Assembly (NCBI RefSeq): GCF_946415235.1
Contig: NZ_CAMKRR010000009.1
Coordinates: 1,276-65,275 of the forward strand
Source: an uncultured Ruminococcus sp.
Lineage (GTDB): Bacteria > Bacillota > Clostridia > Oscillospirales > Ruminococcaceae
DNA length: 64,000 bases
Direction of reading: 5' to 3'
Shown: piece after piece, positions 6,063 through 64,000 of the stretch
Numbering within the stretch: position 1 is the first letter of the stretch
Layout: every line of letters begins with the position of its first letter
The notes under the pieces: model-generated
Database searches by the model: none
What the model was told of the DNA's origin: nothing
What the model saw: only the letters and a program-made list of their open reading frames with translations
Made by a program: the position numbers and the translations under genes

Positions 6063-7094
6063 TTATTCGGTTTGCTTTTTTTCTCTTTTCATATTGATTA
6101 TATGCACTGCAAAGGTAACTCCAGCACCGAGAAGAAGTATCAGATAGAATGTAAGTCCTCGGCTGATGAGAAGCGCAGGTTTTACGAGTTCGACGCCAAA
6201 TATATCGGTAAAAGCCAGAAGGAAGCAGCCTTCAGAAATACCTGCCGCCCCGGGGAGCGGAAGCATTTCCACTGCAACTCCAATAAGGATCTGGAGTGTC
6301 AGGATATCAATAAATCTCGTACTGCTCAGTCCGTATGCCCTGTAAACTATCCACGTAATACTGAAAAGACAAATCCTTTGCGCCGCTGTGATAAGAAAGA
6401 CCTTGAACACAACAGAAAGGTTACGCTTGATATAATCAGCTCCCATAGCATAGGTATCACATATCCTTATGAGCTTTTCGGTATATTTTTCCTTGTTTTT
6501 CCTTTTCATTATCCTGATCTTCGTGAGCAGATCAACGACCTTTATGCCAAGAGCTCTTGCCCAAATGGGCTTTATAAATATCAGCAGAAGAGCAGCTATG
6601 AACGAAAGATTAAGAACAAACCCGAGAACGATCAGCCATTTCATATCTCCGGCGTATTGTCTCACTACATCAAAATTAAACGCAAGAAATCCAAGCGCCA
6701 TAAGAACAAGGACCGATTTATATGCTATAGTAATAAGAAGCATGATAAGCGTGGAATATCCGATCTTGATCTTGTCTTTTTTCATATGATACATCTGCAT
6801 CGGCTGACCGCCTGTGGACGAAGGCGTGATATAACTGAAAAAGAAACCGATAAACGAATATTTAAGGCATTTAAGAAAGCTCGTTCTCTGTTCGAGCACC
6901 CTGAGCATATAATGTATGATACTCGCTTCACCTGCAACAAACAGTACGGCAGCGCAAGCTCCCAAGGCGATCCACCGCGGCTTTGCACCTTTCAGATCGC
7001 GGATTATCTCGGGGAGCTCCTGCTCTTTAAAGATGAGATGGAGCGTAAAAAACGTTATAACAAGAATAAGACCGACATTCAACGCATATTTCAT
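6063..7094 (-). CDS. Lysylphosphatidylglycerol synthase TM-domain / YbhN (UPF0104) flippase-like membrane protein
   Basis: Multi-TM protein with FFSYITPSSTGGQPMQMY and PLPGAAGISEG motifs. Confidence 0.88.
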   Translation of the reverse strand: MKYALNVGLILVITFFTLHLIFKEQELPEIIRDLKGAKPRWIALGACAAVLFVAGEASIIHYMLRVLEQRTSFLKCLKYSFIGFFFSYITPSSTGGQPMQMYHMKKDKIKIGYSTLIMLLITIAYKSVLVLMALGFLAFNFDVVRQYAGDMKWLIVLGFVLNLSFIAALLLIFIKPIWARALGIKVVDLLTKIRIMKRKNKEKYTEKLIRICDTYAMGADYIKRNLSVVFKVFLITAAQRICLFSITWIVYRAYGLSSTRFIDILTLQILIGVAVEMLPLPGAAGISEGCFLLAFTDIFGVELVKPALLISRGLTFYLILLLGAGVTFAVHIINMKREKKQTE

Positions 7095-49722: not shown

Positions 49723-51810
49723 TCACACTCCGAAAAGAAGTTTGTCGTATGCAGGGAATGGATAATAGTCCTCCGCAGTTATTGTCTCGGCTTTGTCGGC
49801 TGCTGCACGGAGCTTATCCATTGCAGGGATCATCTTGTCACGTACAAACTCTGATTCCTTGATTATATCTCCGATGGTTTTCAGCTTTGCAACAGCTGCT
49901 TCAAGCTTTACAGCTGCATCGTCCATTTCATCAATGCGGACTGACAGCTCCTCAACGAGCTTGGTCTCGTACTTGCAGGCTGCCTTTGATACGCTCTTCT
50001 TGACTGCAACAGCAGAAGCCGTATCAGCAGCAAACTTTGCTACAGCAGGGATTATCTCCTTGCGAGCCATATCGACCATGGTCTGTGCCTCGATATTTAC
50101 AGACTTGACATAGTTTTCAAGCATGATATCGCGGCGTGAATAGATCTCTGCCTCCGTAAAGATACCGTGTGATGTGAGCATTTCAATATTCTTTTTGTCA
50201 CATATCTTAGGCATACAGTCGGCAGTAGTCCTCAGGTTGGAAAGTCCGCGCTTTTCGGCTTCCTTGACCCACTTGTCATCATAGCCGTTTCCGTTGAAGA
50301 TTATGCGCTTGTGTTCCTTGATGGTATTCTTTATGAGTTCGTGGAGAGCCTTGTTGAAGTCCTTTGCTCCTTCGAGCTTGTCAGCGAACTGCTTTAATAC
50401 CTCCGCAACTGCACCGTTCAGATGGATATTGGCGCATGATATGCTGTTGGACGATCCAAGCATACGGAACTCAAACTTATTGCCTGTGAATGCAAAAGGA
50501 GATGTACGGTTACGGTCTGTTGTGTCCTTGCTGAACTGAGGAAGCACATCAACACCCAGTTTCATTTTCTCCTTGGCTGTACCGCCGTAGGGCTTGTCAT
50601 TCTCGATAGCCTCAAGTATAGCTGTAAGCTCATCACCAAGGAATATTGAAATAATAGCGGGAGGAGCTTCGTTTGCACCGAGACGGTGGTCATTGCCTGC
50701 TGTAGCAACTGAAAGTCTCAGTAGATCCTGATAGTCGTCAACTGCCTTGATAACAGCAGCAAGGAAGAGCAGGAACTGTGCATTCTCATAAGGTGTTTCT
50801 CCGGGAGAAAGAAGATTTACGCCCGTATCTGTGGAGATGGACCAGTTGTTGTGCTTGCCCGAGCCATTTACGCCCTCGAATGGCTTTTCGTGAAGCAGGC
50901 AAACAAGCCCGTGACGCTCGGCTACCTTCTTCATAACCTCCATTGTGAGCTGATTGTGGTCGGCAGCAATATTTGTAGTTTTGTAAATAGGAGCAAGCTC
51001 GTGCTGTGCGGGAGCGACTTCATTGTGCTTTGTCTTTGCAAGGATACCGAGCTTCCAGAGCTCCTTGTCAAGATCAGCCATAAATTCGGATACTCTCGAC
51101 TTTATGGAACCGAAATAGTGATCTTCCATTTCCTGTCCCTTCGGAGGCATTGCACCGAAAAGGGTACGTCCTGTCATTATGAGGTCTTTCCTCTTCTTGT
51201 ACATGTCACGGTCAACGAGGAAGTATTCCTGCTCGGGACCTACCGATGTGCGGACGCTTCTGACGCTTTCGTTTCCGAACAGCTTAAGAACACGAAGTGC
51301 CTGCTTGTTGAGTGCTTCCATTGAGCGGAGAAGCGGAACCTTCTTGTCGAGAGCCTCACCTGTATATGAGCAGAAAGCGGTAGGTATGTAAAGTGTTCCG
51401 TCCTTGATGAATGCATATGAAGTCGGATCCCATGCAGTATATCCACGTGCTTCAAAGGTAGCGCGGAGTCCGCCCGAAGGGAATGACGAAGCATCAGGCT
51501 CGCCCTTTACAAGCTCCTTGCCCGAGAATTCCATGATAACTCTTCCGTCGGGTGCAGGAGTGATAAAGCTGTCGTGCTTCTCGGCTGTAACGCCTGTCAT
51601 TGGCTGGAACCAGTGAGTATAGTGAGTTGCACCTTTCTCGATAGCCCAGTCCTTCATGGCTGCCGCAACAACATTTGCAACGGACAGATCAAGGGGCGTT
51701 CCCCTGTCAATCGTCCTTTTCAGAGACTTGTAGACCTTCTCTGAGAGGGTTGCTTTCATGACTCTCTCATCGAATACCATTGAACCAAAATAATCTGTTA
51801 CCTTTTCCAT
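49723..51810 (-). CDS. glnA: Glutamine synthetase type III (catalytic motifs intact)
   Basis: Start MEKVT at 51810. [74 protein letters not shown]. Confidence 0.96.
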
Positions 51811-51825
51811 TTTTATTTCCTCCAT

Positions 51826-53427
<1,602 letters not shown>

Positions 53428-53454
53428 TTATGCTCCTTGAAATACATTTATGAT

Positions 53455-53511
53455 AAAGGCAGTCTGCGGAGTATGGGAGATTCAGGTTTAATAATATCCG
53501 CAGACGCCCTT
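53455..53511 (-). other. Long hairpin in the pyrG 5' leader
   Basis: aaaggc-agtctgcgga ... tccgcagac-gccctt with a ~26-nt loop, just upstream of the pyrG RBS. Confidence 0.6.
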
Positions 53512-53610
53512 AACAGCTTATGAACGTTCATGCTCCTTCGAATTGCGGAACGATGTAAGTATCATGCATGGCTTGATAAAAAACAAATGGGTGCAGAAGT
53601 CCTGAGACTT

Positions 53611-53689
53611 CATACACCCCTTTGTGTATGGAATTAGCGCTTAAACCAAAAAAGAGAGCTACGGATACCATATCCGCAGCTCCCTTGCT
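53611..53689 (-). promoter_or_regulatory. pyrG-operon attenuator: ANTAR-type hairpin / terminator / second ANTAR-type hairpin
   Basis: Minus strand AGC-AAGGGA-GCU (53689-53678) overlaps the 5' arm of a 14-bp terminator (53684-53654) with U-tract; then CAUACAC-AAAGGG-GUGUAUG (53630-53611). Confidence 0.75.
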
Positions 53690-53701
53690 GTTTACAATGC
53701 C

Positions 53702-53730
53702 ATTATAGACCTTTGTGGGAGATTTGTCAA
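53702..53730 (-). promoter_or_regulatory. Consensus SigA promoter of the pyrG-glnA-dapF-dapL operon
   Basis: Minus strand TTGACA-17-TATAAT. Confidence 0.88.
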
Positions 53731-53831: not shown

Positions 53832-53860
53832 TTGACATTTCCACTTTAACGTGATAAGAT
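53832..53860 (+). promoter_or_regulatory. SigA promoter of the gltB operon
   Basis: TTGACA-17-TAAGAT with TG. Confidence 0.82.
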
Positions 53861-53869
53861 ATTTTTAGC

Positions 53870-53948
53870 AACAAAGACGTTCGTACAGGCTTACTGTCTG
53901 TATGGACGTCTTTTTTATTATGCGATGCGGATCAATGGCGCTCCGTAT
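53870..53948 (+). promoter_or_regulatory. gltB-operon attenuator: ANTAR-type hairpin / terminator / second ANTAR-type hairpin
   Basis: AAC-AAAGAC-GUU (53870-53881) overlaps the 5' arm of a 14-bp terminator (53875-53911) with U6; then AUGCGGAUC-AAUGGC-GCUCCGUAU (53925-53948) next to the RBS. Confidence 0.78.
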
Positions 53949-53959
53949 CGGAAAGGCAA

Positions 53960-56900
53960 GTGAATGATATGGATAATTTCAGGAGGGAAGCTCCATATGT
54001 GCAGCAGGGCCTTTACGACCCGAGATTTGAACATGATAACTGCGGAATAGGTGCAGTTGTAAACATCAAGGGCGAGGCATCAAGATATGTCGTTGACAGT
54101 GCTCTTACTATAGTTGAAAAGCTTGAGCACCGTGCAGGCAAGGATGCTGAGGGCAAAACCGGTGACGGCGTGGGAATACTTGTGCAGATGCCCTACAGCT
54201 TTTTTACAGAAGAGATAAAAAAACTGGGTGCCGAACTCGGTGAAAACGGTGACTTCGGTGTAGGTATGTTTTTCTTCCCGCAGAATGAACTCAGACGCGA
54301 CCGTGCAAAGAAGCTTTTTGAAAAAATAACCGACAATAACGGCATGGACTTTATATGCTGGAGAGAAGTGCCTACTTCTCCTTCAATACTCGGTCATAAA
54401 GCGCTCAGCAGTATGCCGTGTATCATGCAGGCTTTTCTAAGGCGTCCAGAAAACTGCAAAAGAGGTCTCGATTTTGACCGCAGGCTCTTCATTGCAAGAC
54501 GTGAGTTCGAGCAGTCAAACGAGGATACTTATGTATGTTCCCTTTCAAGCCGTACTATAGTTTATAAGGGTATGTTCCTCGTTGACGAGCTGAGAAGGTT
54601 CTATGCCGATCTCCGCAGTGAGGACTTCACATCTGCTATAGCAATGGTGCACTCGCGTTTCTCGACGAATACTAATCCAAGCTGGCAGAAGGCTCACCCG
54701 AACCGCTTTATCGTTCACAACGGTGAGATCAATACGATTACAGGCAATGCAGACAAAATGCTCGCCCGTGAGGAGACAATGACCTGTGAAACGCTGAAAA
54801 ACGATATGCACAGGATACTTCCTGCTATAAATGTAAACGGTTCCGACTCCGCGAGACTTGACAATGCTCTCGAATTTATGGTAATGTCGGGTATGCCGCT
54901 TCCTCTTGCGGTTATGATAACTATACCCGAGCCGTGGAAAAATGACAAGACCATATCCAAGGCAAAGTATGACTTCTACCAGTACTATGCTACAATGATG
55001 GAGCCATGGGACGGTCCTGCTTCCATTCTTTTCTCCGACGGTGACGTTATGGGAGCCGTTCTCGACAGGAACGGCCTCCGTCCTTCAAGATACTGCATAA
55101 CAAGCGACGGGTTTCTTATTCTTTCATCAGAGACGGGCTGCATAGATATCGCACCTGAGAATATTGTGAAAAAAGACCGTCTCCGTCCGGGAAAAATGCT
55201 CCTTGCAGACACAAAGCAGGGACGTATCATAGAGGACGACGAGATCAAGAATACTTATGCATCACGTCAGCCATACGGCGAATGGCTCGATGCAAACCTT
55301 GTACGTCTCCATGATCTGCATATCCCGAACAAGGGAGTTCAGACCTACTCCAAAGACGAGCTTGCGAAGCTCCACAAGGCTTTCGGCTACTCCTACGAGG
55401 ATATCCGCACATCTATTCTGCCAATGGCTGAAAAAGGAGCTGAGCCCATTGCTTCCATGGGAAGCGATATACCGCTCCCTCCGCTTGATAAGCAGTCTCC
55501 TCCCCTTTTCAACTACTTCCGTCAGCTATTCGCACAGGTAACAAATCCGCCCTTTGACGCTATCCGTGAAGAGATAGTTACCGACACCAGCGTATACATA
55601 GGCAAGGACGGAAATATCCTCGAAGAATGTCCCGAAAACTGCCATGTACTCAAGATCGAAAACCCAATCCTTACAGAGACGGATATGCTCAAGATAAAAG
55701 CCCTTGACCGTAAAGGGCTGAAAAGCGCAGTTATCCCGATAACCTACTACATCGGAACATCTCTTGACAAGGCTATCGAGCGTCTTTTCATCGAAGCTGA
55801 CAAGGCTTACCGCGACGGTGCATCCATTCTTATCCTTTCGGACCGCGGTGTTGACGAGTACCACTGCCCGATACCATCACTCCTTGCAGTTTCAGCACTC
55901 CAGCAGCATCTCGTTTCCACAAAGAAGCGCACGGCAGTTGCCATGATCCTTGAATCGGCTGAGCCAAGAGAGGTACACCATTTTGCTGCACTTCTCGGCT
56001 ATGGTGCGTGTGCTGTAAATCCGTACCTTGCACACGAAACTATCCGTTCACTTATCGAAGAAGGTTCTCTCGACAAGGATTTCTATGCTGCCGAGGACGA
56101 CTACAACAGTGCTATACTCCACGGTATAGTAAAAATAGCTTCAAAAATGGGAATCTCCACTATACAGTCCTATCAGGGCAGCAAGCTTTTTGAGGCAGTT
56201 GGTATCTCACAGGAGCTTATCGACAGCTGCTTTGCAGGTACTGTAAGCCGTATAGGCGGTATCGGACTTGCTGATATAAGCCGCCGCACAGAGGCTCTCC
56301 ACACAGCTGCTTATGATCCGCTGGGACTCCATGTGAGCAGCGAAGTAAAGAGCGCAGGCAGTCACAAGCTCCGCAGCGGAAAGAGCGATCACCTTTACAC
56401 TCCCGAGACCATACATCTGCTTCAGCAGGCAGCGTGGACAGGCAGCTATGAGACATTTAAGAAGTATTCCGAAGCTCTTACCCGTGAGGATAACGAGCTT
56501 ACGCTCCGCAGTCTCCTTGACTTCAATTTTGACAGTGCAAATGAGATACCGCTGGACGAGGTCGAGTCTGTTGAGAGCATTTGCACACGCTTCAAGACAG
56601 GCGCCATGTCATACGGCTCTATTTCGCAGGAAGCTCATGAGTGCATGGCTGTTGCCATGAACAGTATAGGCGGAAAATCCAACAGCGGCGAGGGCGGTGA
56701 AAGTCCCGAGCGTCTGAGATCTGATAAATGTTCCGCTATCAAGCAGGTTGCTTCGGGACGTTTCGGCGTTACCTCGGAATATCTGGTTTCAGCACAGGAG
56801 ATACAGATAAAAATGGCACAGGGTGCAAAGCCCGGTGAGGGCGGACATCTTCCCTCGGGAAAGGTCTATCCCTGGATTGCCAAAACTCGTCATTCAACAG

Positions 56901-58504
56901 CAGGCGTTGGTCTTATTTCTCCTCCGCCCCACCATGATATCTACTCTATCGAAGATCTTGCACAGCTTATCTACGATCTCAAAAATGCCAACGACAAGGC
57001 TCGTATCTCAGTAAAACTCGTATCCGAGGCAGGCGTAGGAACTGTTGCGGCAGGCGTTGCAAAGGCAGGAGCACAGGTCATCCTTATTTCGGGCTACGAC
57101 GGAGGTACGGGAGCGGCTCCAAAGAGCTCCATATACAATGCAGGACTTCCGTGGGAGCTTGGACTTGCCGAGGCTCATCAGACACTTATGCTCAACGGTC
57201 TGCGTTCAAGAGTACGTATTGAAACAGACGGCAAGCTCATGACAGGTCGTGATGTACTTGTTGCAGCTCTTCTCGGTGCCGAGGAATTCGGCTTTGCAAC
57301 AGCTCCGCTGGTAACAATGGGCTGTGTTATGATGAGGGTCTGCAACCTCGACACCTGCCCTATGGGTATAGCAACACAGAATCCCGAGCTCAGGAAGCGT
57401 TTCCGCGGAAAGCCTGAATATATCATAAACTTCATGCACTTCATAGCACAGGAGCTCCGTGAATATATGGCTAAGCTCGGAATACGCACAGTTGACGAGC
57501 TTGTGGGACGCACAGATTTTCTCCGCATAAAGGACAGTGCGGCTGAAAAGAATATCGACTTTACCAATATACTTGCAAACAGCACAGTTGACAGCAAAAA
57601 ACATTTTGTCGCTGACGATATTTACGATTTTGAACTTGACAAGACCATAGACCGCCGTGTTATAATAAAGAAGCTGGGAAGTGCGCTGAAAAACGGAACT
57701 TCCAAGTCGATTTCCATTAACGTTGTGAATACAGACCGCTCCGTAGGAACTCTCACAGGTGCGGAGATAACACGGATCCACGGTGAAAACGTACTTGCTG
57801 ACGATACATTTACAGTGATATGCACTGGCAGCGGCGGACAGTCCTTCGGCGCTTTCATACCTAAAGGACTTACACTGGAGCTTTGCGGTGACAGCAACGA
57901 TTACTTCGGAAAGGGACTGTCGGGCGGCAAGCTGATACTCTGTCCGCCTAAGGGTTCAGCATTCAAAGCTGACGAGAATATCATCGTCGGAAATGTGGCT
58001 CTCTACGGAGCTACCTCGGGCAAGGCATTCATCAACGGCGTTGCAGGCGAACGCTTCTGCGTAAGGAATTCGGGAGCTACTGCAGTCTGCGAGGGCGTGG
58101 GTGACCACGGCTGCGAGTACATGACAGGCGGACGTGCCGTTATTCTCGGACGAACAGGAAAGAACTTTGCAGCAGGTATGTCGGGCGGTATAGCATATGT
58201 CCTCGACGAGGAGCATGATCTCTATACACGTCTCAACAAAGCTTTGGTTTCCCTTGAAACCGTCATCGATGAAGAAGACATCGCAGAGCTTAAGGCCATG
58301 ATCTCCGAACACGCAGAGGCTACAGGTTCTGAAAAGGCAAAGCAGATACTTGCTGATTTCGAGCGCTATCTGCCATGCTTCAAGAAGGTTATACCCCACG
58401 ATTTTGCGAAGATACAAACCACAGTAACAAAACTTGAAAAATCAGGCGTGAGCAGCGAACAGGCTATGATAGAAGCATTCGAGCTCATCAGAAAGGAGGC
58501 GTGA
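53960..58504 (+). CDS. gltB: Glutamate synthase large subunit (start GTG 53960 or ATG 53969)
   Basis: EHDNCGIG, HSRFSTNT.PSW, EPWDGPA, GAMSYGSIS, QGAKPGEGGHLP, CVMMRVCNLDTCP.GIATQ, GXGXG C-terminus. Confidence 0.98.
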   Translation: MNDMDNFRREAPYVQQGLYDPRFEHDNCGIGAVVNIKGEASRYVVDSALTIVEKLEHRAGKDAEGKTGDGVGILVQMPYSFFTEEIKKLGAELGENGDFGVGMFFFPQNELRRDRAKKLFEKITDNNGMDFICWREVPTSPSILGHKALSSMPCIMQAFLRRPENCKRGLDFDRRLFIARREFEQSNEDTYVCSLSSRTIVYKGMFLVDELRRFYADLRSEDFTSAIAMVHSRFSTNTNPSWQKAHPNRFIVHNGEINTITGNADKMLAREETMTCETLKNDMHRILPAINVNGSDSARLDNALEFMVMSGMPLPLAVMITIPEPWKNDKTISKAKYDFYQYYATMMEPWDGPASILFSDGDVMGAVLDRNGLRPSRYCITSDGFLILSSETGCIDIAPENIVKKDRLRPGKMLLADTKQGRIIEDDEIKNTYASRQPYGEWLDANLVRLHDLHIPNKGVQTYSKDELAKLHKAFGYSYEDIRTSILPMAEKGAEPIASMGSDIPLPPLDKQSPPLFNYFRQLFAQVTNPPFDAIREEIVTDTSVYIGKDGNILEECPENCHVLKIENPILTETDMLKIKALDRKGLKSAVIPITYYIGTSLDKAIERLFIEADKAYRDGASILILSDRGVDEYHCPIPSLLAVSALQQHLVSTKKRTAVAMILESAEPREVHHFAALLGYGACAVNPYLAHETIRSLIEEGSLDKDFYAAEDDYNSAILHGIVKIASKMGISTIQSYQGSKLFEAVGISQELIDSCFAGTVSRIGGIGLADISRRTEALHTAAYDPLGLHVSSEVKSAGSHKLRSGKSDHLYTPETIHLLQQAAWTGSYETFKKYSEALTREDNELTLRSLLDFNFDSANEIPLDEVESVESICTRFKTGAMSYGSISQEAHECMAVAMNSIGGKSNSGEGGESPERLRSDKCSAIKQVASGRFGVTSEYLVSAQEIQIKMAQGAKPGEGGHLPSGKVYPWIAKTRHSTAGVGLISPPPHHDIYSIEDLAQLIYDLKNANDKARISVKLVSEAGVGTVAAGVAKAGAQVILISGYDGGTGAAPKSSIYNAGLPWELGLAEAHQTLMLNGLRSRVRIETDGKLMTGRDVLVAALLGAEEFGFATAPLVTMGCVMMRVCNLDTCPMGIATQNPELRKRFRGKPEYIINFMHFIAQELREYMAKLGIRTVDELVGRTDFLRIKDSAAEKNIDFTNILANSTVDSKKHFVADDIYDFELDKTIDRRVIIKKLGSALKNGTSKSISINVVNTDRSVGTLTGAEITRIHGENVLADDTFTVICTGSGGQSFGAFIPKGLTLELCGDSNDYFGKGLSGGKLILCPPKGSAFKADENIIVGNVALYGATSGKAFINGVAGERFCVRNSGATAVCEGVGDHGCEYMTGGRAVILGRTGKNFAAGMSGGIAYVLDEEHDLYTRLNKALVSLETVIDEEDIAELKAMISEHAEATGSEKAKQILADFERYLPCFKKVIPHDFAKIQTTVTKLEKSGVSSEQAMIEAFELIRKEA

Positions 58505-58507
58505 GCC

Positions 58508-59992
58508 ATGGGAAAAGCTACAGGATTTCTTGAATATTCAAGAACGGAAACAACTGCAAAGGAGCCTCTTGAGCGCATAAAGAACTTTAATGAGTTCCAT
58601 ATTCCGCTCAGTGAAGAGCACCGCCGCGAACAGGCTTCACGCTGCATGGACTGCGGAGTCCCCTTCTGTCAGAACGGTAAAATGCTCTGCGGCATGATAT
58701 CAGGCTGCCCGCTGAACAACCTCATTCCCGAATGGAACGATCTGCTTTATCACGGTCAGAAAGAATTGGCGCTGAACCGTCTGCTCATGACCAACAACTT
58801 CCCCGAGTTCACATCAAGGGTATGTCCAGCACTCTGTGAAAAGGCTTGTATCTGCGGTGTTAACGATTCACCCGTAACTACAAAGGAGAACGAGAATTCA
58901 ATCATCGAATTCGGCTTCGCAAAGGGTCTTATGCAGCCGCAGATACCCGCTGTAAGGAGCGGCAAGTATGTCGCAGTCATAGGCTCTGGTCCCTCGGGAC
59001 TTGCTGCTGCTGATACTCTCAATAAGCGCGGTCACAGTGTAACTGTATTTGAGCGCTCCGACCGTGTCGGTGGTCTGCTTATGTACGGTATCCCTAATAT
59101 GAAGCTTGAAAAGCATATCATAGAGCGCCGAGTTGAGCTCATGAAAGCTGAGGGCGTTGAATTCAGAACGAATTCAAATGTGGGCGAAAATGTTTCCGCC
59201 GATGAAATACTCGGCAGCTTTGATGCTGTCGTACTTGCCTGCGGTTCGTCAAATCCCCGTGATATAAAAGCTGAAGGACGTGACGCAGAGGGCATATACT
59301 TCGCAGTGGATTTCCTCAAAGCAACTACAAAGAGCCTGCTTGACTCAGAGCTTACAGACGGCAAGTTTATTTCCGCCAAGGACAAGAACGTTGTTATCAT
59401 AGGAGGAGGCGATACAGGTAATGACTGTGTCGGAACTTCCGTCCGTCATGGCTGCAAGTCAGTTGTTCAGCTTGAAATGATGCCTAAGCTCCCCGACGAG
59501 AGAGCCGAGAACAACCCATTCCCCGAGTGGCCGAGAGTCTGCAAGACCGATTACGGTCAGGAAGAAGCAATAGCGCTATTCGGACATGATCCGCGAATCT
59601 ACTGCACAACAGTCAAGGAATTCATCAAGGACGAAAGCGGCAAGCTTTCTGCTATAAAGGCAGTAAAGCTAAGCTACGGCACAGATCCCGAAACTGGCAG
59701 ACGCACTATGAACGAGATCGAAGGAAGCGAAGAGATCATCCCCTGCGAGCTTTGTCTCATTGCAGCAGGATTTCTCGGCTGTCAGCAGTATATCGCAGAC
59801 GCTTTCGGCGTATCACTTGACCAGCGCACAAACGTAAAAACAGCACCCGGCAAACATTCCACAGATGTTGATAAGGTATTCACAGCAGGCGATATGCACA
59901 TAGGACAGTCCCTTGTGGTCCGTGCTATCCGTGAGGGACGCGACGCCGCGGCAGAGGTCGATGAATACCTTATGGGATACACCAATTTATGA
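58508..59992 (+). CDS. gltD: Glutamate synthase small subunit
   Basis: QASRCMDCGVPFC, NNFPEFT.RVCPA.CE..C, GSGPSGL, GGGDTGNDC, VF.AGD...GQSLVV.AI.EGR. Confidence 0.97.
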   Translation: MGKATGFLEYSRTETTAKEPLERIKNFNEFHIPLSEEHRREQASRCMDCGVPFCQNGKMLCGMISGCPLNNLIPEWNDLLYHGQKELALNRLLMTNNFPEFTSRVCPALCEKACICGVNDSPVTTKENENSIIEFGFAKGLMQPQIPAVRSGKYVAVIGSGPSGLAAADTLNKRGHSVTVFERSDRVGGLLMYGIPNMKLEKHIIERRVELMKAEGVEFRTNSNVGENVSADEILGSFDAVVLACGSSNPRDIKAEGRDAEGIYFAVDFLKATTKSLLDSELTDGKFISAKDKNVVIIGGGDTGNDCVGTSVRHGCKSVVQLEMMPKLPDERAENNPFPEWPRVCKTDYGQEEAIALFGHDPRIYCTTVKEFIKDESGKLSAIKAVKLSYGTDPETGRRTMNEIEGSEEIIPCELCLIAAGFLGCQQYIADAFGVSLDQRTNVKTAPGKHSTDVDKVFTAGDMHIGQSLVVRAIREGRDAAAEVDEYLMGYTNL

Positions 59993-60005: not shown

Positions 60006-61280
60006 ATGATCTATTCAGAAAATGAGATATTGCAGTATATTGAGGAAAATGACGTTAAGTTCGTAAAGCTTACATTCTGCGACTTGAAAGGCAGACTAAA
60101 AAACATATCTGTCCTTTCATCAGAGCTTGCAATGACCTTTGAGCGCGGAGTCCGCATAACCGCTAAGAAAATAGCAGGCTTCGAGGCAGCAAACGGAAAA
60201 GATCTTTTCCTCTTCCCCGACGCTCAGACAATGACTGTTCTCCCGTGGAGACCTCAGCAGGGCAGAGTAATCAGAATGTTCTGCTATATCCGTTACGCTG
60301 ACGGCACTCCGTTCGAGGGAGACGGCAGATACTTCCTCAAAAAGGCAATGAAAGCGGCAGTTGCGGCAGGCTACTGCTTCCGCTTCGGAACATCATGCGA
60401 ATTCACGCTTTTCCATAAGGACGCAAACGGGCTCCCGACAAAAACTCCCCATGATTATGCGGGCTACTGCGATGTTGCTCCCGACGACAAGGGTGAGAAT
60501 ATACGCCGCGATGTTTGCCTCACTCTCGAACAGATGGGTATACATCCCATATCATCTCGCCATGAGAGCGGCTGCGGACAGCATGAGATAGACTTCAATG
60601 CCTCATCTGCATTAAAAGCGGCTGATACGTTCCTCAGTTTCAAATCCGCTGTAAAATCTGTAGCGGAGACACACGATGTCCACGCAAGCTTCATGCCAAA
60701 GCCTCTTCGCAGCGACTGCGGCAACGGTATGCATATCAGCTTCAATGTCTTCCCCGACAATGATATGCTAGAGGAAACAAAAAACAATAATGAACTTCTT
60801 AAAAGTGCAGCAGCAGGTATAATGAAGCATATCCGTGAATTTACTCTTTTCACGAATTCGACTGTGAATTCTTACGAAAGGCTCGGTGAATTCACTGCTC
60901 CCCGTGACGTAATCTGGTCAGACGAGGAAGGAGCTCAGCTTATACGCATTAATCCTGAAAGCGAAAACACCTGTGTTGAATTACGTGCCGCCGATTGTGT
61001 GTGCGATCCGTATTTCGTTCTCGGTCTGATGATATATTCGGCACTTGAGGGCATCGAAGGAAAGCTTGCACTGCCCGAAAAGAACAGCGGCACGGAACGT
61101 CTTCCCTCAAACCTTGAGGAAGCGGCCTCCTGCACGGAAAGTTCTGATTTTGTTAAGAAATACGTGCCGTCAAATATACTTGATGTGCTGATATATTACA
61201 GTCATGAAGAGTGGCGCGTGTATTCTTCGGCATATGACAAGGATGCATTTGAGGAAAAACACTATTTTTACAGTCTCTGA
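60006..61280 (+). CDS. Glutamine synthetase type I-like protein with degenerate active site (probable pseudo-enzyme)
   Basis: ATG 60006 after ggagg. GS-I scaffold (VKFVKL.F.DL.G.LKN, FPD..T..VLPW, GQHEI, FMPKP, GMH, ELR) with GPExEF changed to GTSCEF, GYEAP to EFTAP and NR to EG. Confidence 0.82.
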   Translation: MIYSENEILQYIEENDVKFVKLTFCDLKGRLKNISVLSSELAMTFERGVRITAKKIAGFEAANGKDLFLFPDAQTMTVLPWRPQQGRVIRMFCYIRYADGTPFEGDGRYFLKKAMKAAVAAGYCFRFGTSCEFTLFHKDANGLPTKTPHDYAGYCDVAPDDKGENIRRDVCLTLEQMGIHPISSRHESGCGQHEIDFNASSALKAADTFLSFKSAVKSVAETHDVHASFMPKPLRSDCGNGMHISFNVFPDNDMLEETKNNNELLKSAAAGIMKHIREFTLFTNSTVNSYERLGEFTAPRDVIWSDEEGAQLIRINPESENTCVELRAADCVCDPYFVLGLMIYSALEGIEGKLALPEKNSGTERLPSNLEEAASCTESSDFVKKYVPSNILDVLIYYSHEEWRVYSSAYDKDAFEEKHYFYSL

Positions 61281-61292
61281 CGGAGGTAAGCT

Positions 61293-61874
61293 TTGGAAAA
61301 AATTCTTGTAGTTTCAAGTAATAAGACCGCCTCTGAAGCTCTTGTGAATTTCCTCCGTGATTCATTCAGATGTACGCCCAAACTCGTCGAATCAGCCTAT
61401 CAGGCAAAGACAGTTTTCGACGCCGACCCGTCTGTGGAGCTCGCAGTTATCAACTCTCCGCTTATGGACGAATCGGGCTTTGAGCTTGCGGAATACATCA
61501 TCGAAAATACCACTGCAAACTGCATTTTCATGATAAAAGAGGAGCAGACAGAAAAAATTGCAGGACGAGCCGAAAAGACAGGTATTATCATAGTCGGCAA
61601 GCCGTTCAGCCGTACTCTCCTTTACCAGCTTGTGAAAACTCTTGATATCGCCGTAAACCGTTCACTGAAGCTTTACGAGGAGAACCGTCGTCTTGAAGAA
61701 AAGATCGACGAGATACAGACGATTGACAAGGCAAAGTTCATGCTCATGCAGTACAAGGGTATGACAGAGGATGAAGCACACGCTTATCTTGAACAGTACG
61801 CTATGAATAAACGCAAGAAGAAAAGTCTTGCGGCTCTGGCAATAATCGATAAGCTGAGTGAGCAATACTTATAA
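61293..61874 (+). CDS. ANTAR-domain RNA-binding antiterminator with pseudo-receiver domain
   Basis: TTG after ggaggt. Receiver fold lacks the acidic pocket (VVSSN) and has Asn54 at the phospho-Asp position; KPF retained; coiled coil; IDKAKFMLM...GMTEDEAHAYLEQYAMNKR. Confidence 0.92.
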   Translation: MEKILVVSSNKTASEALVNFLRDSFRCTPKLVESAYQAKTVFDADPSVELAVINSPLMDESGFELAEYIIENTTANCIFMIKEEQTEKIAGRAEKTGIIIVGKPFSRTLLYQLVKTLDIAVNRSLKLYEENRRLEEKIDEIQTIDKAKFMLMQYKGMTEDEAHAYLEQYAMNKRKKKSLAALAIIDKLSEQYL

Positions 61875-61888
61875 GTGAGGCGTAGGAA

Positions 61889-63310
61889 ATGTTTGACAGT
61901 ATCCACGAAGAATGCGGTGTTTTCGGAATATACGAAAACAAAACTTCTGACGTTGCCGCATCTGTATATTTCGGGCTGTATGCGCTCCAGCACAGAGGTC
62001 AGGAGAGCTGCGGCATAACTGTCTGTGATGACGGTATCTTCAGGCATAAGCGTGCAGACGGACTTGTCTCCGAGGTGTTCGGCAGAGAAGAGCTCGACAA
62101 GCTCGGCAACGGAAACATGGCTGTAGGACACGTCCGTTACTCCACAACAGGCGGACATAATCACAATAATATCCAGCCCCTTGTAATACGCCATATCAAG
62201 GGCAATATGGCGCTCGTTCATAACGGCAATCTTGTCAATGCGGCAGAACTCCGCCGTTCCTTTGAGATGTCGGGAGCTATCTTTCACGGCACCTCGGACA
62301 CAGAGGCGATAGCTTATTCCATAGTGCGTGAACGACTTACAACAGGTTCGACCGAACAGGCTGTTGAACGTGCAATGCCCAGCATCAAGGGAGCATACTC
62401 ATGCATACTCATGACTGCTACAAAGCTGATAGCCTTTCGTGACCCGGACGGCTTCCGTCCGCTGTGTATCGGCAGAACTCATGACGGAGCTTATGTTGTT
62501 GCTTCCGAGTCCTGCGCTCTTGAAACAGTGGGTGCGGAGTTCCTGCGTGATATTGACGCGGGAGAAATTGTCGTCATAGGCAGGGACGGATTGCAGTCCA
62601 TACGCACAAACTGCACAACAAGGCGCAATATCTGCATTTTCGAGTACATCTACTTTGCTCGTCCCGATTCTGTTATCGAGGGCATATCAGTTCACCACGC
62701 GAGACTTTCTGCAGGTAGGCTCCTTGCAAAAAGCAGTCCTGTTGATGCAGATATAGTTATCGGCGTTCCCGATTCGGGACTTGATGCGGCTCTCGGTTAT
62801 GCCAACGAAAGCGGTATACCATACGGTATCGGCTTCATCAAGAACAAATACATCGGCCGCAGCTTCATTCAGCCCGAACAGCACCAGCGCGAAAACGCAG
62901 TAAAGATAAAGCTTAACGCCGTCCGTGAGAGCGTTTCGGGCAAGCGCGTTATAATGATTGATGATTCCATAGTCCGCGGCACTACAAGCGCAAGGATAGT
63001 AAAGCTGCTGCGCGAAGCAGGAGCAAAGGAAGTTCATGTCCGCATCTCTTCACCACCTTTTCTTCACACCTGCCACTTCGGCACGGATATCGACTCGGAG
63101 GAGAATCTCATTGCCGGCAAATGCAGCTCAACAGATGAGATAGCAAAGTATATCGGCGCTGACAGTCTTGCATACCTGCCTGTTGAATGTCTCGGTGAGC
63201 TCGTTGACAACCGTTTCGGCTACTGCAAGGGCTGCTTCACAGGAGCTTATCCCGTAGACATTTCAGGTGCAGGGAGCAAAAATAAGTTCGACGAGAAAAT
63301 ACACAAATAA
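61889..63310 (+). CDS. purF: Amidophosphoribosyltransferase
   Basis: HEECGVFG, LQHRGQE, GHVRYST, HNGNL, VPDSG, IDDSIVRGTT, GTDI. Confidence 0.97.
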   Translation: MFDSIHEECGVFGIYENKTSDVAASVYFGLYALQHRGQESCGITVCDDGIFRHKRADGLVSEVFGREELDKLGNGNMAVGHVRYSTTGGHNHNNIQPLVIRHIKGNMALVHNGNLVNAAELRRSFEMSGAIFHGTSDTEAIAYSIVRERLTTGSTEQAVERAMPSIKGAYSCILMTATKLIAFRDPDGFRPLCIGRTHDGAYVVASESCALETVGAEFLRDIDAGEIVVIGRDGLQSIRTNCTTRRNICIFEYIYFARPDSVIEGISVHHARLSAGRLLAKSSPVDADIVIGVPDSGLDAALGYANESGIPYGIGFIKNKYIGRSFIQPEQHQRENAVKIKLNAVRESVSGKRVIMIDDSIVRGTTSARIVKLLREAGAKEVHVRISSPPFLHTCHFGTDIDSEENLIAGKCSSTDEIAKYIGADSLAYLPVECLGELVDNRFGYCKGCFTGAYPVDISGAGSKNKFDEKIHK

Positions 63311-63408: not shown

Positions 63409-64000
63409 ATGTGTACGATAATGGCATACTGCGGTGTAGGCGGTATGGAAAAGGTCACGGAGGGACTTAAAGCAACAGTCTCACGCGGACCTGACGATCA
63501 GAGAATAACTGAAGTTGCAGGAGGAGTACTCGGATTTCAGAGACTGTCCATAATGGGACTTACTCCCGAGGGGATGCAGCCATTTGAACTTGATGGCAGC
63601 TCTGTTATATGCAACGGCGAGATATATGGTTTCAGAAAGCTGCGCGATGAACTCATCAAAAAGGGCTACAGCTTTAAAAGTGACAGTGACTGCGAGATAC
63701 TTCTTCCGCTTTATAAGGAATACGGTACTGATATGTTCGCAAAGCTTGACGCTGAGTTTGCCTGCGTGATATACGACGGCGCAGCGAAAGAATTCATTGC
63801 AGCCCGTGACCCCATAGGCATTCGTCCGCTGTACTACGGCAAGTCCTATGACGGCACGATCGTCTTTGCAAGTGAAGCAAAGAACCTTGTCAGGATTTGC
63901 AGAAAGGTAATGCCTTTCCCGCCAGGTCACTACTTCAAGGGCGGAGAATTTCACTGCTACTGCGACATCACAGCTGTTGACAAGGTCATTCACGATGATA
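63409..64000 (+). CDS. asnB: Asparagine synthase (glutamine-hydrolysing), 3' truncated; absent from the supplied ORF track
   Basis: ggaggg RBS, then MCTIMAY...RGPD...GFQRLSIMGL...QPF...CNGEIY...SDCE.LLPLY...LDAEFA...ARDPIGIRPLYYG...FASEAK.L...FPPGHY. Confidence 0.95.
   Translation, partial: MCTIMAYCGVGGMEKVTEGLKATVSRGPDDQRITEVAGGVLGFQRLSIMGLTPEGMQPFELDGSSVICNGEIYGFRKLRDELIKKGYSFKSDSDCEILLPLYKEYGTDMFAKLDAEFACVIYDGAAKEFIAARDPIGIRPLYYGKSYDGTIVFASEAKNLVRICRKVMPFPPGHYFKGGEFHCYCDITAVDKVIHDD

Follow-up and report, generated by a model that had tools for sequence, protein, structure and literature searches.

ANTAR regulons covering nitrogen genes are known, as are the glnA-nitR cluster and the regulation of ANTAR antiterminators by a switch of protein partners. 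In glnA-nitR(-gltAB) of Clostridium saccharobutylicum NCP262 and in Clo1313_2030-2036 of Clostridium thermocellum, where the ANTAR regulator Clo1313_2030 lies beside glnA (Clo1313_2031) and glutamate synthase (GOGAT) (PMC4676874), a gene for a class I glutamine synthetase (GS-I) is followed by an ANTAR gene in a GOGAT-linked cluster, and in both the antiterminator is proposed to induce glutamine synthetase (GS) and GOGAT under nitrogen limitation (PMC6316151 citing Stutz 2007; PMC4676874). The sensing mechanism of the glnA-nitR(-gltAB) cluster was described in a 2018 review as 'not fully understood' (PMC6316151). Here the analysis was directed at a stretch of 64,000 nucleotides (nt) from an uncultured Ruminococcus sp. 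(the window; positions 1276-65275 of contig C9, with the closest proteins named R. flavefaciens or Ruminococcus sp.), in which a gene for a GS-I-like protein of 424 amino acids (aa) at 60006..61280 on the plus strand precedes a gene for a 193 aa ANTAR antiterminator with a pseudo-receiver at 61293..61874. The pair fits the layout of the glnA-nitR module (same strand, 12-nt gap, order gltB-gltD-GS-like-ANTAR), with synteny matching that of both clostridial clusters. In those two clusters the GS is described as a working enzyme, whereas the GS partner in the window lacks catalytic residues and the chemistry appears to be left to a class III enzyme (GSIII); also unlike both, the GOGAT here is of the large bacterial gltBD type and this genome has two pairs. 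Comparison with more than 100 related loci suggests that this GS look-alike is the missing nitrogen sensor of a switch widespread in gut Clostridia.

Other described systems each share part of this arrangement. In AmiC-AmiR of Pseudomonas aeruginosa and NasS-NasT of Paracoccus denitrificans, a co-encoded ligand-binding protein sequesters the ANTAR protein until its ligand is bound (PMC3369931; PMC3795266). AmiR and NasT carry a non-phosphorylatable receiver-like domain, as does the window protein, whereas the sensors AmiC and NasS are built on a periplasmic-binding-protein fold with amides or nitrate as ligands, the candidate sensor here being an oligomeric GS fold. The GS of Bacillus subtilis, of the GS I-alpha type, is a nitrogen sensor that contacts TnrA and GlnR directly (PMC6316151), and such a contact is likewise proposed here; that enzyme, however, has full activity, it signals by glutamine feedback inhibition via Arg62 and Glu304, both of which are absent here, and it acts on DNA-binding MerR-type factors, not on an RNA-binding ANTAR protein. 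In the archaeal GS I-alpha enzymes, GlnA1 of Methanosarcina mazei and the GS of Methanothermococcus thermolithotrophicus (MtGS), 2-oxoglutarate (2-OG) turns on catalysis or assembly; their pocket residues align with the window protein, which has none of the blocking residues of B. subtilis GS, but the archaeal enzymes are active, whereas here catalysis is gone and the proposed output is a partner protein. On the RNA side, the leaders described below resemble the target of EutV/EutW (Ramesh et al. 2012; PMC3369931) in hexaloops with A1 and G4, in conserved closing pairs and in hairpins and terminators that exclude each other. EutV, in contrast, is a true response regulator with a kinase and its target is a tandem P1-P2 element with a 5-12 nt linker, whereas here each hairpin has its own terminator and the first lies almost at the 5' end of the transcript.

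Residues of the GS-like protein were mapped by aligning it to B. subtilis GS (4LNF) with phmmer and by an alignment of 26 sequences, and are given in B. subtilis numbering. B. subtilis GS is the closest solved relative (275 bits) and the GS fold is present, with a beta-grasp N domain (Gln-synt_N, PF03951, 58.5 bits) and a catalytic C domain (Gln-synt_C, PF00120, 235 bits). The score against the GlnA equivalog TIGR00653 (268.4 bits) lies under the cut-off of 429.15, and the NCBIfam match to gamma-glutamylputrescine synthetase (158 bits) lies far under its own. The residue changes listed in an earlier note on this DNA were reproduced to the codon: Glu132 is Ser (60393-60395), the flap residue Glu304 is Thr (60894-60896), Asn315-Arg316 is Glu-Gly (60927-60932), Asp53-Gly-Ser-Ser is Thr-Ala-Lys-Lys from 60159 (Ser55 and Ser56 both Lys), and NGSG is CGNG from 60717 (Asn240 to Cys). 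The residues that handle ammonium (D53, S55, S56 and Glu304) are thus all replaced, by Thr, Lys, Lys and Thr, and the ATP contacts are gone, the beta-phosphate ligand Arg316 being Gly309 of the window protein and the adenine-stacking aromatic residue (Tyr201 in B. subtilis, Phe204 in M. mazei) being Ala199. The n1 metal site (Glu134, Glu189, Glu196) is complete, the n2 site (E132, H245, E333) is incomplete through the change of E132 to Ser, and His188, His195, His245, Arg298, Arg321, Glu333, Arg335 and Tyr156 are also kept. With catalytic residues gone and a score under the GlnA cut-off, the protein is predicted to be unable to act as a normal GS, which supports that claim of the earlier note.

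The substitutions are fixed across 121 protein clusters at 77-91% identity, with Ser130 and Glu308 in 121/121, Gly309 in 120/121, Cys238 in 118/121 and Thr or Ser at position 297 in 119/121. The non-synonymous divergence (dN) of the GS-like gene among seven loci of its clade is 0.11-0.24, near that of gltD (0.10-0.22) and, similarly, of purF; the synonymous divergence (dS) is saturated (at least 2), so that dN/dS is an upper-bound estimate of roughly 0.05-0.11 at most. Fixed substitutions together with a low dN indicate a gene that is selected and not decaying. As a separate observation, the clade conserves ten cysteines at a level of 90% or more (among them C124, C131, C155, C190, C238, C331 and C333). 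Four of these, C155, C190, C238 and C331, are confined to the degenerate clade and are placed within or close to active-site motifs, with C238 standing at the Asn240 position and C190 at the Pro192 position. These clade-specific cysteines could form a metal or redox site.

The GS-like protein was searched against 200 genomes of the class, and 45 of the positive Clostridia genomes were then searched with the ANTAR model. An ANTAR domain was encoded directly downstream of the GS-like match in 45/45 genomes, covering 47 of their 49 ANTAR domains. In a larger set of 106 loci, made up of 80 further named loci and those from the 200-genome search, the GS-like-then-ANTAR order was found in about 100, wherever the contig extended. 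The usual neighbours are a split GOGAT, glnN, pyrG, purF and asnB, but the pair, with an internal gap of 2-70 nt, is kept even where the neighbours differ (more than 100 loci), and paired loci include metagenome-assembled genomes labelled Treponema, Sphaerochaeta and Erysipelotrichales. Among Clostridia, the pairing of a GS-I-like gene with an ANTAR gene behind it is near-universal. In the window the two genes share a reading frame, with TGA, two codons and TAA between them (61278-61292), and the same in-frame spacing (1290 nt start to start) occurs in most close relatives.

The ANTAR protein of the window has a TTG start with the ribosome-binding site (RBS) GGAGG 5 nt upstream, contains an ANTAR domain (PF03861, 54.8 bits against a threshold of 27.3) and matches the structures of EutV, Rv1626, AmiR (1QO0) and NasR. 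Its receiver domain scores 19.4 bits, under the cut-off of 30.2; Asn54 occupies the phospho-acceptor position, the acidic pair is replaced by Ser8-Ser9, and Lys103-Pro104 are kept. Asn54 and Gly62 are as far apart as the corresponding Asp and Gly of true receivers. The view that this receiver cannot be phosphorylated was therefore upheld, given Asn54 and the loss of the acidic pocket. In the set of 106 partner ANTAR proteins, 87 have Asn and 7 have Asp as the acceptor residue, and 99 carry Ser at the first position of the acidic pocket. The pseudo-receiver is thus characteristic of the whole NitR-type family, and this implies a partner other than a kinase; no kinase was found from about 42.9 kb to the end of the contig, as the earlier note had said of the cluster.

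Twelve catalytic positions were tabulated in 112 GS-like proteins. All 12 are kept in 26 proteins, 64 depart only at the Glu304 flap, and 22 are degenerate in differing ways, with n1 ligands lost at loci L010, L013 and L015 and various combinations of losses at L050, L064, L065, L071 and L110. In a Maximum Likelihood tree the window protein falls in a clade of 11 degenerate proteins with 98% support, all with Glu132 changed to Ser, and a minimum of 8 changes is needed to place the degenerate state on the tree, of which well-supported branches force 3. Catalytic residues have thus been lost repeatedly and independently, with the gene pair persisting throughout. Compared with B. subtilis GS, the whole ANTAR-linked family has Asn at His195, Ser, Pro or Ala at Asn240, and no Arg62. 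The tree also contains a well-supported clade of 62/112 proteins (loci L012-L109) that are shorter (about 403 aa), with a flap residue that is usually Lys and the other catalytic residues kept; most of the 64 proteins that depart only at the flap belong to it. The pairing of GS-like and ANTAR genes is obligate, but both the pairing and the pseudo-receiver are family-wide and extend to catalytically intact GS-like proteins. Since they also accompany proteins in which all catalytic positions are intact, the degenerate GS is an end state of a wider GS/NitR module and not a separate invention.

For the ligand, the GS-like protein was aligned to chain 8UFJ_A, which we take to be M. mazei GlnA1 since the residue numbering fits, giving a constant offset of +5. 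The 2-OG pocket of M. mazei GlnA1 is formed by F24, R26, R87, R172', R173' and S189' (PMC11957540) and that of MtGS by Arg20, Arg88, Arg174, Arg175, Ser191 and Phe18, with a small residue at position 34 (PMC10799026). The corresponding residues in the window protein are F19, K21, R82, R167, R168 and S184, and its blocking position is occupied by Ser35. In B. subtilis GS, which according to the MtGS authors is unable to fit 2-OG (PMC10799026), the stacking residue is Tyr, the blocking residue is Glu and the Arg87 position holds Thr. Across the 112 members, the pocket Phe is found in 112, Arg or Lys at the second position in 112, R82 in 111, R167 in 112, R168 in 112 and S184 in 111. Pocket identity among the 22 degenerate proteins is 92% (100% when Arg and Lys are taken as equivalent), against 68% for the catalytic positions. 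As judged from this conservation, the signal is most likely 2-OG and not glutamine or nucleotides.

The earlier note had instead cast the protein as a sensor of glutamine, glutamate or nucleotides, and the same partnership could operate with one of these ligands read at the remnant active site, as in B. subtilis GS. Part of the substrate pocket is indeed kept, the n1 triad (E134, E189, E196), H245, R298, E333 and R335 being present in 118-121 of the 121 clusters, which implies selection on that part. The residues by which B. subtilis GS recognizes glutamine are gone, however, Arg62 family-wide and Glu304 by change to Thr here (PMC10799026), and so are Asn240, the Asp50' loop and the ATP contacts Arg316 and Tyr201; among degenerate members the 2-OG pocket, and not the active site, is the better conserved. 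We therefore regard another ligand as unlikely, although the partnership it assumes is the one favoured here.

A glutamine synthetase predicted to be catalytic is present elsewhere in the genome. The earlier note had placed an intact GSIII across the divergent promoter, and glnN (49723..51825, minus strand, three GSIII Pfam domains) aligns end to end with B. fragilis GSIII (3O6X) and retains all GSIII catalytic motifs (ExE, QHE, NGSG-H, NEAPP and E-x-R), so that it is catalytically intact by sequence; it is, however, second in its operon behind pyrG and not promoter-proximal. This genome has three GSIII genes, and GSIII is present in 28/30 pair-bearing genomes, both of the others carrying a canonical GS-I. 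On this basis glutamine synthesis is judged to be done by GSIII, the GS-like protein not being a working glutamine synthetase. At one locus (L011; genome G192, C1:2277607-2280980), in the absence of GSIII, a canonical GS-I with a B. subtilis-like signature that includes Arg62, His195 and Asn240 lies directly upstream of the ANTAR-linked GS-like gene, in what looks like an enzyme copy and a sensor copy side by side.

A second GS-like/ANTAR pair is found in the same genome, outside the window (contig C4, 105321-106616 and 106625-107194). Its GS-like protein (431 aa) is more degenerate (E132K, E189K, H245S, E304Y and R316C) and groups with that of L071 with 100% support, and its ANTAR protein (189 aa) likewise carries Asn as the acceptor residue. 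The neighbours of the pair are rpoD, ychF, efp and a gene for a GGDEF/EAL protein, none of them a nitrogen gene. The genome has only two PII domains and both are fused to AmtB, so that no soluble PII is available as a reader of 2-OG; a soluble PII as the partner of the ANTAR protein is weakened as a candidate for this reason.

The candidate RNA targets lie in two divergent leaders. The gltB promoter (53832..53860, plus strand; TTGACA, 17 nt spacer, TG-TAAGAT) is conserved in relatives, and a hairpin AAC[AAAGAC]GUU at 53870..53881 begins about 3 nt past the predicted transcription start, with the stem and loop positions A1, A2 and G4 invariant in 8 relatives and loop position 3 variable. Its 3' strand forms the base of the 5' arm of an intrinsic terminator of 18 bp (53873-53913, to 53919 with the U-tract; z = -5.9), which makes the hairpin a candidate antiterminator, and compensatory changes in the terminator are visible among relatives. 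A second hairpin at 53924..53949, with hexaloop AAUGGC closed by C-G, abuts the RBS GGAAAGG, and in relatives a G-C pair of its stem is changed to A-U with the loop conserved. On the minus strand, the pyrG-glnN promoter (53702..53730; TTGACA, 17 nt spacer, TATAAT) is followed by the hairpin CAGC[AAGGGA]GCUG (53677..53690), which overlaps the 5' arm of terminator T1 (53646..53686 with its U-tract; four pairs with compensatory changes) and whose stem is invariant in 8/8, as are A1, A2 and G4, and then by the hairpin CAUACAC[AAAGGG]GUGUAUG (53611..53630), which overlaps the 5' arm of terminator T2 (53578..53620 with its U-tract). Of the five hexaloop hairpins reported in the earlier note, four were confirmed as conserved C-[AANGNN]-G hairpins.

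When these leaders were compared with seven related contigs and with two paralogous leaders of this genome, the hairpin stems did not vary, nor did loop positions 1, 2 and 4, whereas position 3 of the loop was variable. The leader terminators were 97.5% paired with four compensatory pairs, and their covariation exceeded that of all 500 shuffles and all slid controls. A scan of the genome found 20 cases of a C-[AANGNN]-G hairpin that overlaps a terminator, against 5 in the reversed genome, and recovered both the gltB-leader hairpin and CAGC[AAGGGA]GCUG. Further matches precede two AmtB-PII fusion genes (C92:7004-8970 and C100:8147-10800), which have dual hairpin/terminator leaders near-identical to that of pyrG-glnN, the gene on C100 being followed by another GSIII gene (a second glnN); in most relatives an amtB-PII gene lies between the shared gltB promoter region and pyrG, a position from which it is missing in this genome. 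On contig C118, C-[AANGNN]-G hairpins overlapping terminators at 6079 (plus strand), 2891 and 1499 (minus strand) precede genes for a glutamine-dependent NAD synthetase (nadE), a FUSC/HAD membrane protein and citrate synthase, and may extend the regulon to the supply of 2-OG. Hairpins of ANTAR type competing with terminators thus precede the nitrogen genes gltB, pyrG-glnN, the two amtB genes and nadE, as the earlier note would predict. At gathering thresholds, Rfam gave no known RNA family in the window.

Taken together, we consider it slightly more probable than not that a GS-derived pseudoenzyme sensor, probably of 2-OG, gates the ANTAR protein, the contact between the two proteins, the ligand and the direction of control being what we infer. 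In this mechanism the GS-like protein would no longer make glutamine but keeps its fold, its n1 metal and glutamate-carboxylate ligands and an inter-subunit 2-OG pocket, and it would be co-translated with an ANTAR protein whose receiver serves as a phosphorylation-blind module for protein interaction. The GS-like oligomer would read nitrogen status, likeliest through 2-OG and possibly also through glutamine or glutamate at the remnant active site, and would hold or release the ANTAR protein via the pseudo-receiver. Sequestration of the ANTAR protein when nitrogen is sufficient is favoured, both by analogy with AmiC-AmiR and NasS-NasT and from the derepression reported for the glnA deletion of C. 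thermocellum. Free ANTAR protein would bind the C-[AANGNN]-G hairpins at the 5' ends of the leaders and prevent the overlapping terminators, switching on gltBD with the sensor pair, purF and asnB, the pyrG-glnN operon and the two amtB-PII genes, with nadE and citrate synthase as probable further targets. The interpretation of the pair as a GS-derived pseudoenzyme and a phosphorylation-blind ANTAR protein is partly supported, having been much strengthened by the comparison across loci.

Several observations weigh against this interpretation. Many ANTAR-linked GS-like proteins retain all catalytic residues, and GlnA of C. saccharobutylicum is reported to be active, so that pairing alone is no proof of a sensor role. 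An apparently canonical clostridial GS-I (the first open reading frame of L011) has the 2-OG pocket as well, which indicates that the pocket is ancestral and not acquired for sensing, and in the clade of the window protein the Arg26 of the pocket is Lys. In the leaders, the invariant stems leave the hexaloop hairpins without covariation support, although ANTAR proteins read the loop and closing pairs (PMC3369931) and the constancy of the stems fits such recognition; there is also a single hairpin per terminator, about 3 nt from the start, unlike the published tandem P1-P2 target of ANTAR proteins. A canonical tandem P1-P2 target in the gltB leader was rejected, the transcript beginning about 3 nt before the first hairpin. 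A literature search found no paper proposing or testing GS-ANTAR contact, and no natural GS-ANTAR fusion was found among proteins of 343-1090 aa (none at E <= 1e-5) in a search with the ANTAR half of the in-frame read-through protein, which was of low sensitivity, being word-based with a divergent query. An AlphaFold2 model of the read-through of both genes, built with 36 paired in-frame relatives, folded both halves (mean predicted local distance difference test, pLDDT, 86.7) but gave a predicted template modelling score of 0.68, close to the value expected of two parts that fold independently, with no confident docking, for a single chain with a 5-residue linker although GS is a dodecamer. 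Genetics, by contrast, offers a precedent in favour of the interpretation: the title of Rydzak 2017 states that deletion of this C. thermocellum glnA (Clo1313_2031) deregulates nitrogen metabolism (cited in PMC9888227). Polar effects of the deletion on the downstream ANTAR gene are possible. Nitrogen genes were reportedly derepressed in the deletion strain despite raised glutamine.

The lack of evidence for contact from the fusion search and the AlphaFold2 model speaks for an explanation by co-regulation only, in which the ANTAR protein is controlled by the AmtB-PII domain, another protein or a small molecule and the GS-like protein has an unrelated role, as a divergent ligase or as a modulator of GSIII, GOGAT or amidotransferases. 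Other ligase activities are known to have evolved in GS-like proteins, and the operon is rich in glutamine-using enzymes. Co-regulation does not, however, account well for a pair kept in more than 100 loci across phyla despite differing neighbours, for GS linkage of 47/49 ANTAR genes or for the second pair of this genome, which lies away from any nitrogen gene, and no soluble PII is present; any ATP-dependent ligase role is further argued against by the loss of an n2 ligand, the beta-phosphate Arg and the adenine-stacking residue. We thus consider it an improbable account of the pair, on a par with a different ligand. That the GS-like gene is a decaying, functionless pseudogene, as the loss of several catalytic residues might suggest, was rejected as extremely improbable, since the substitutions are fixed across the 121 clusters under strong purifying selection, the reading frame is intact with a good RBS, and dN/dS and pLDDT are those given above.

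In the window, the genes on the plus strand are ordered gltB, gltD, GS-like, ANTAR, purF and asnB, with gaps of 3, 13, 12, 14 and 98 nt. The operon is headed by gltB (glutamate synthase large subunit, 53969..58504, with the ATG at 53969 as the likely start), followed by gltD (glutamate synthase small subunit, 58508..59992); downstream of the sensor pair lie purF (glutamine amidophosphoribosyltransferase, 61889..63310; TIGR01134, 510 bits), 14 nt past the ANTAR gene, and asnB (glutamine-dependent asparagine synthase, 63409..64000), which extends beyond the end of the window. The divergent pyrG, encoding a glutamine-hydrolysing CTP synthase, occupies 51826..53421 on the minus strand. Just upstream of the pyrG RBS, a long hairpin (GGGCGUCUGCGGAUAUU...CUCCGCAGACUGCC) is found at 53440-53510 on the minus strand, and is present only where pyrG directly follows the leader (the window and L113); it may be a separate, perhaps CTP-responsive, pyrG attenuator placed on top of the ANTAR modules.

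Sensing by NitR-type ANTAR regulators of Clostridia has been an open question since the glnA-nitR cluster was described, and the obligate pair, the phosphorylation-blind receiver, the repeated loss of catalysis and the strict retention of the 2-OG pocket make it directly testable. If the favoured interpretation is true, a GS-derived pseudoenzyme would join the short list of ANTAR sensors, as a case of an enzyme moonlighting as a sensor that turned into a pure receptor, and it would explain nitrogen control in abundant fibre-degrading bacteria of the rumen and gut and in C. thermocellum strains engineered for ethanol. A wider proposal, which we put forward more tentatively and hold to be somewhat short of probable, is that the whole clostridial ANTAR-linked GS-I family, with its spirochaete and Erysipelotrichales offshoots, is primarily a cytoplasmic 2-OG receptor that gates NitR-type antiterminators through direct contact, taking the role that soluble PII has elsewhere, the catalytically dead versions having specialised once GSIII took over catalysis. 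If so, this module would be the main nitrogen switch in a large share of gut and rumen Firmicutes.

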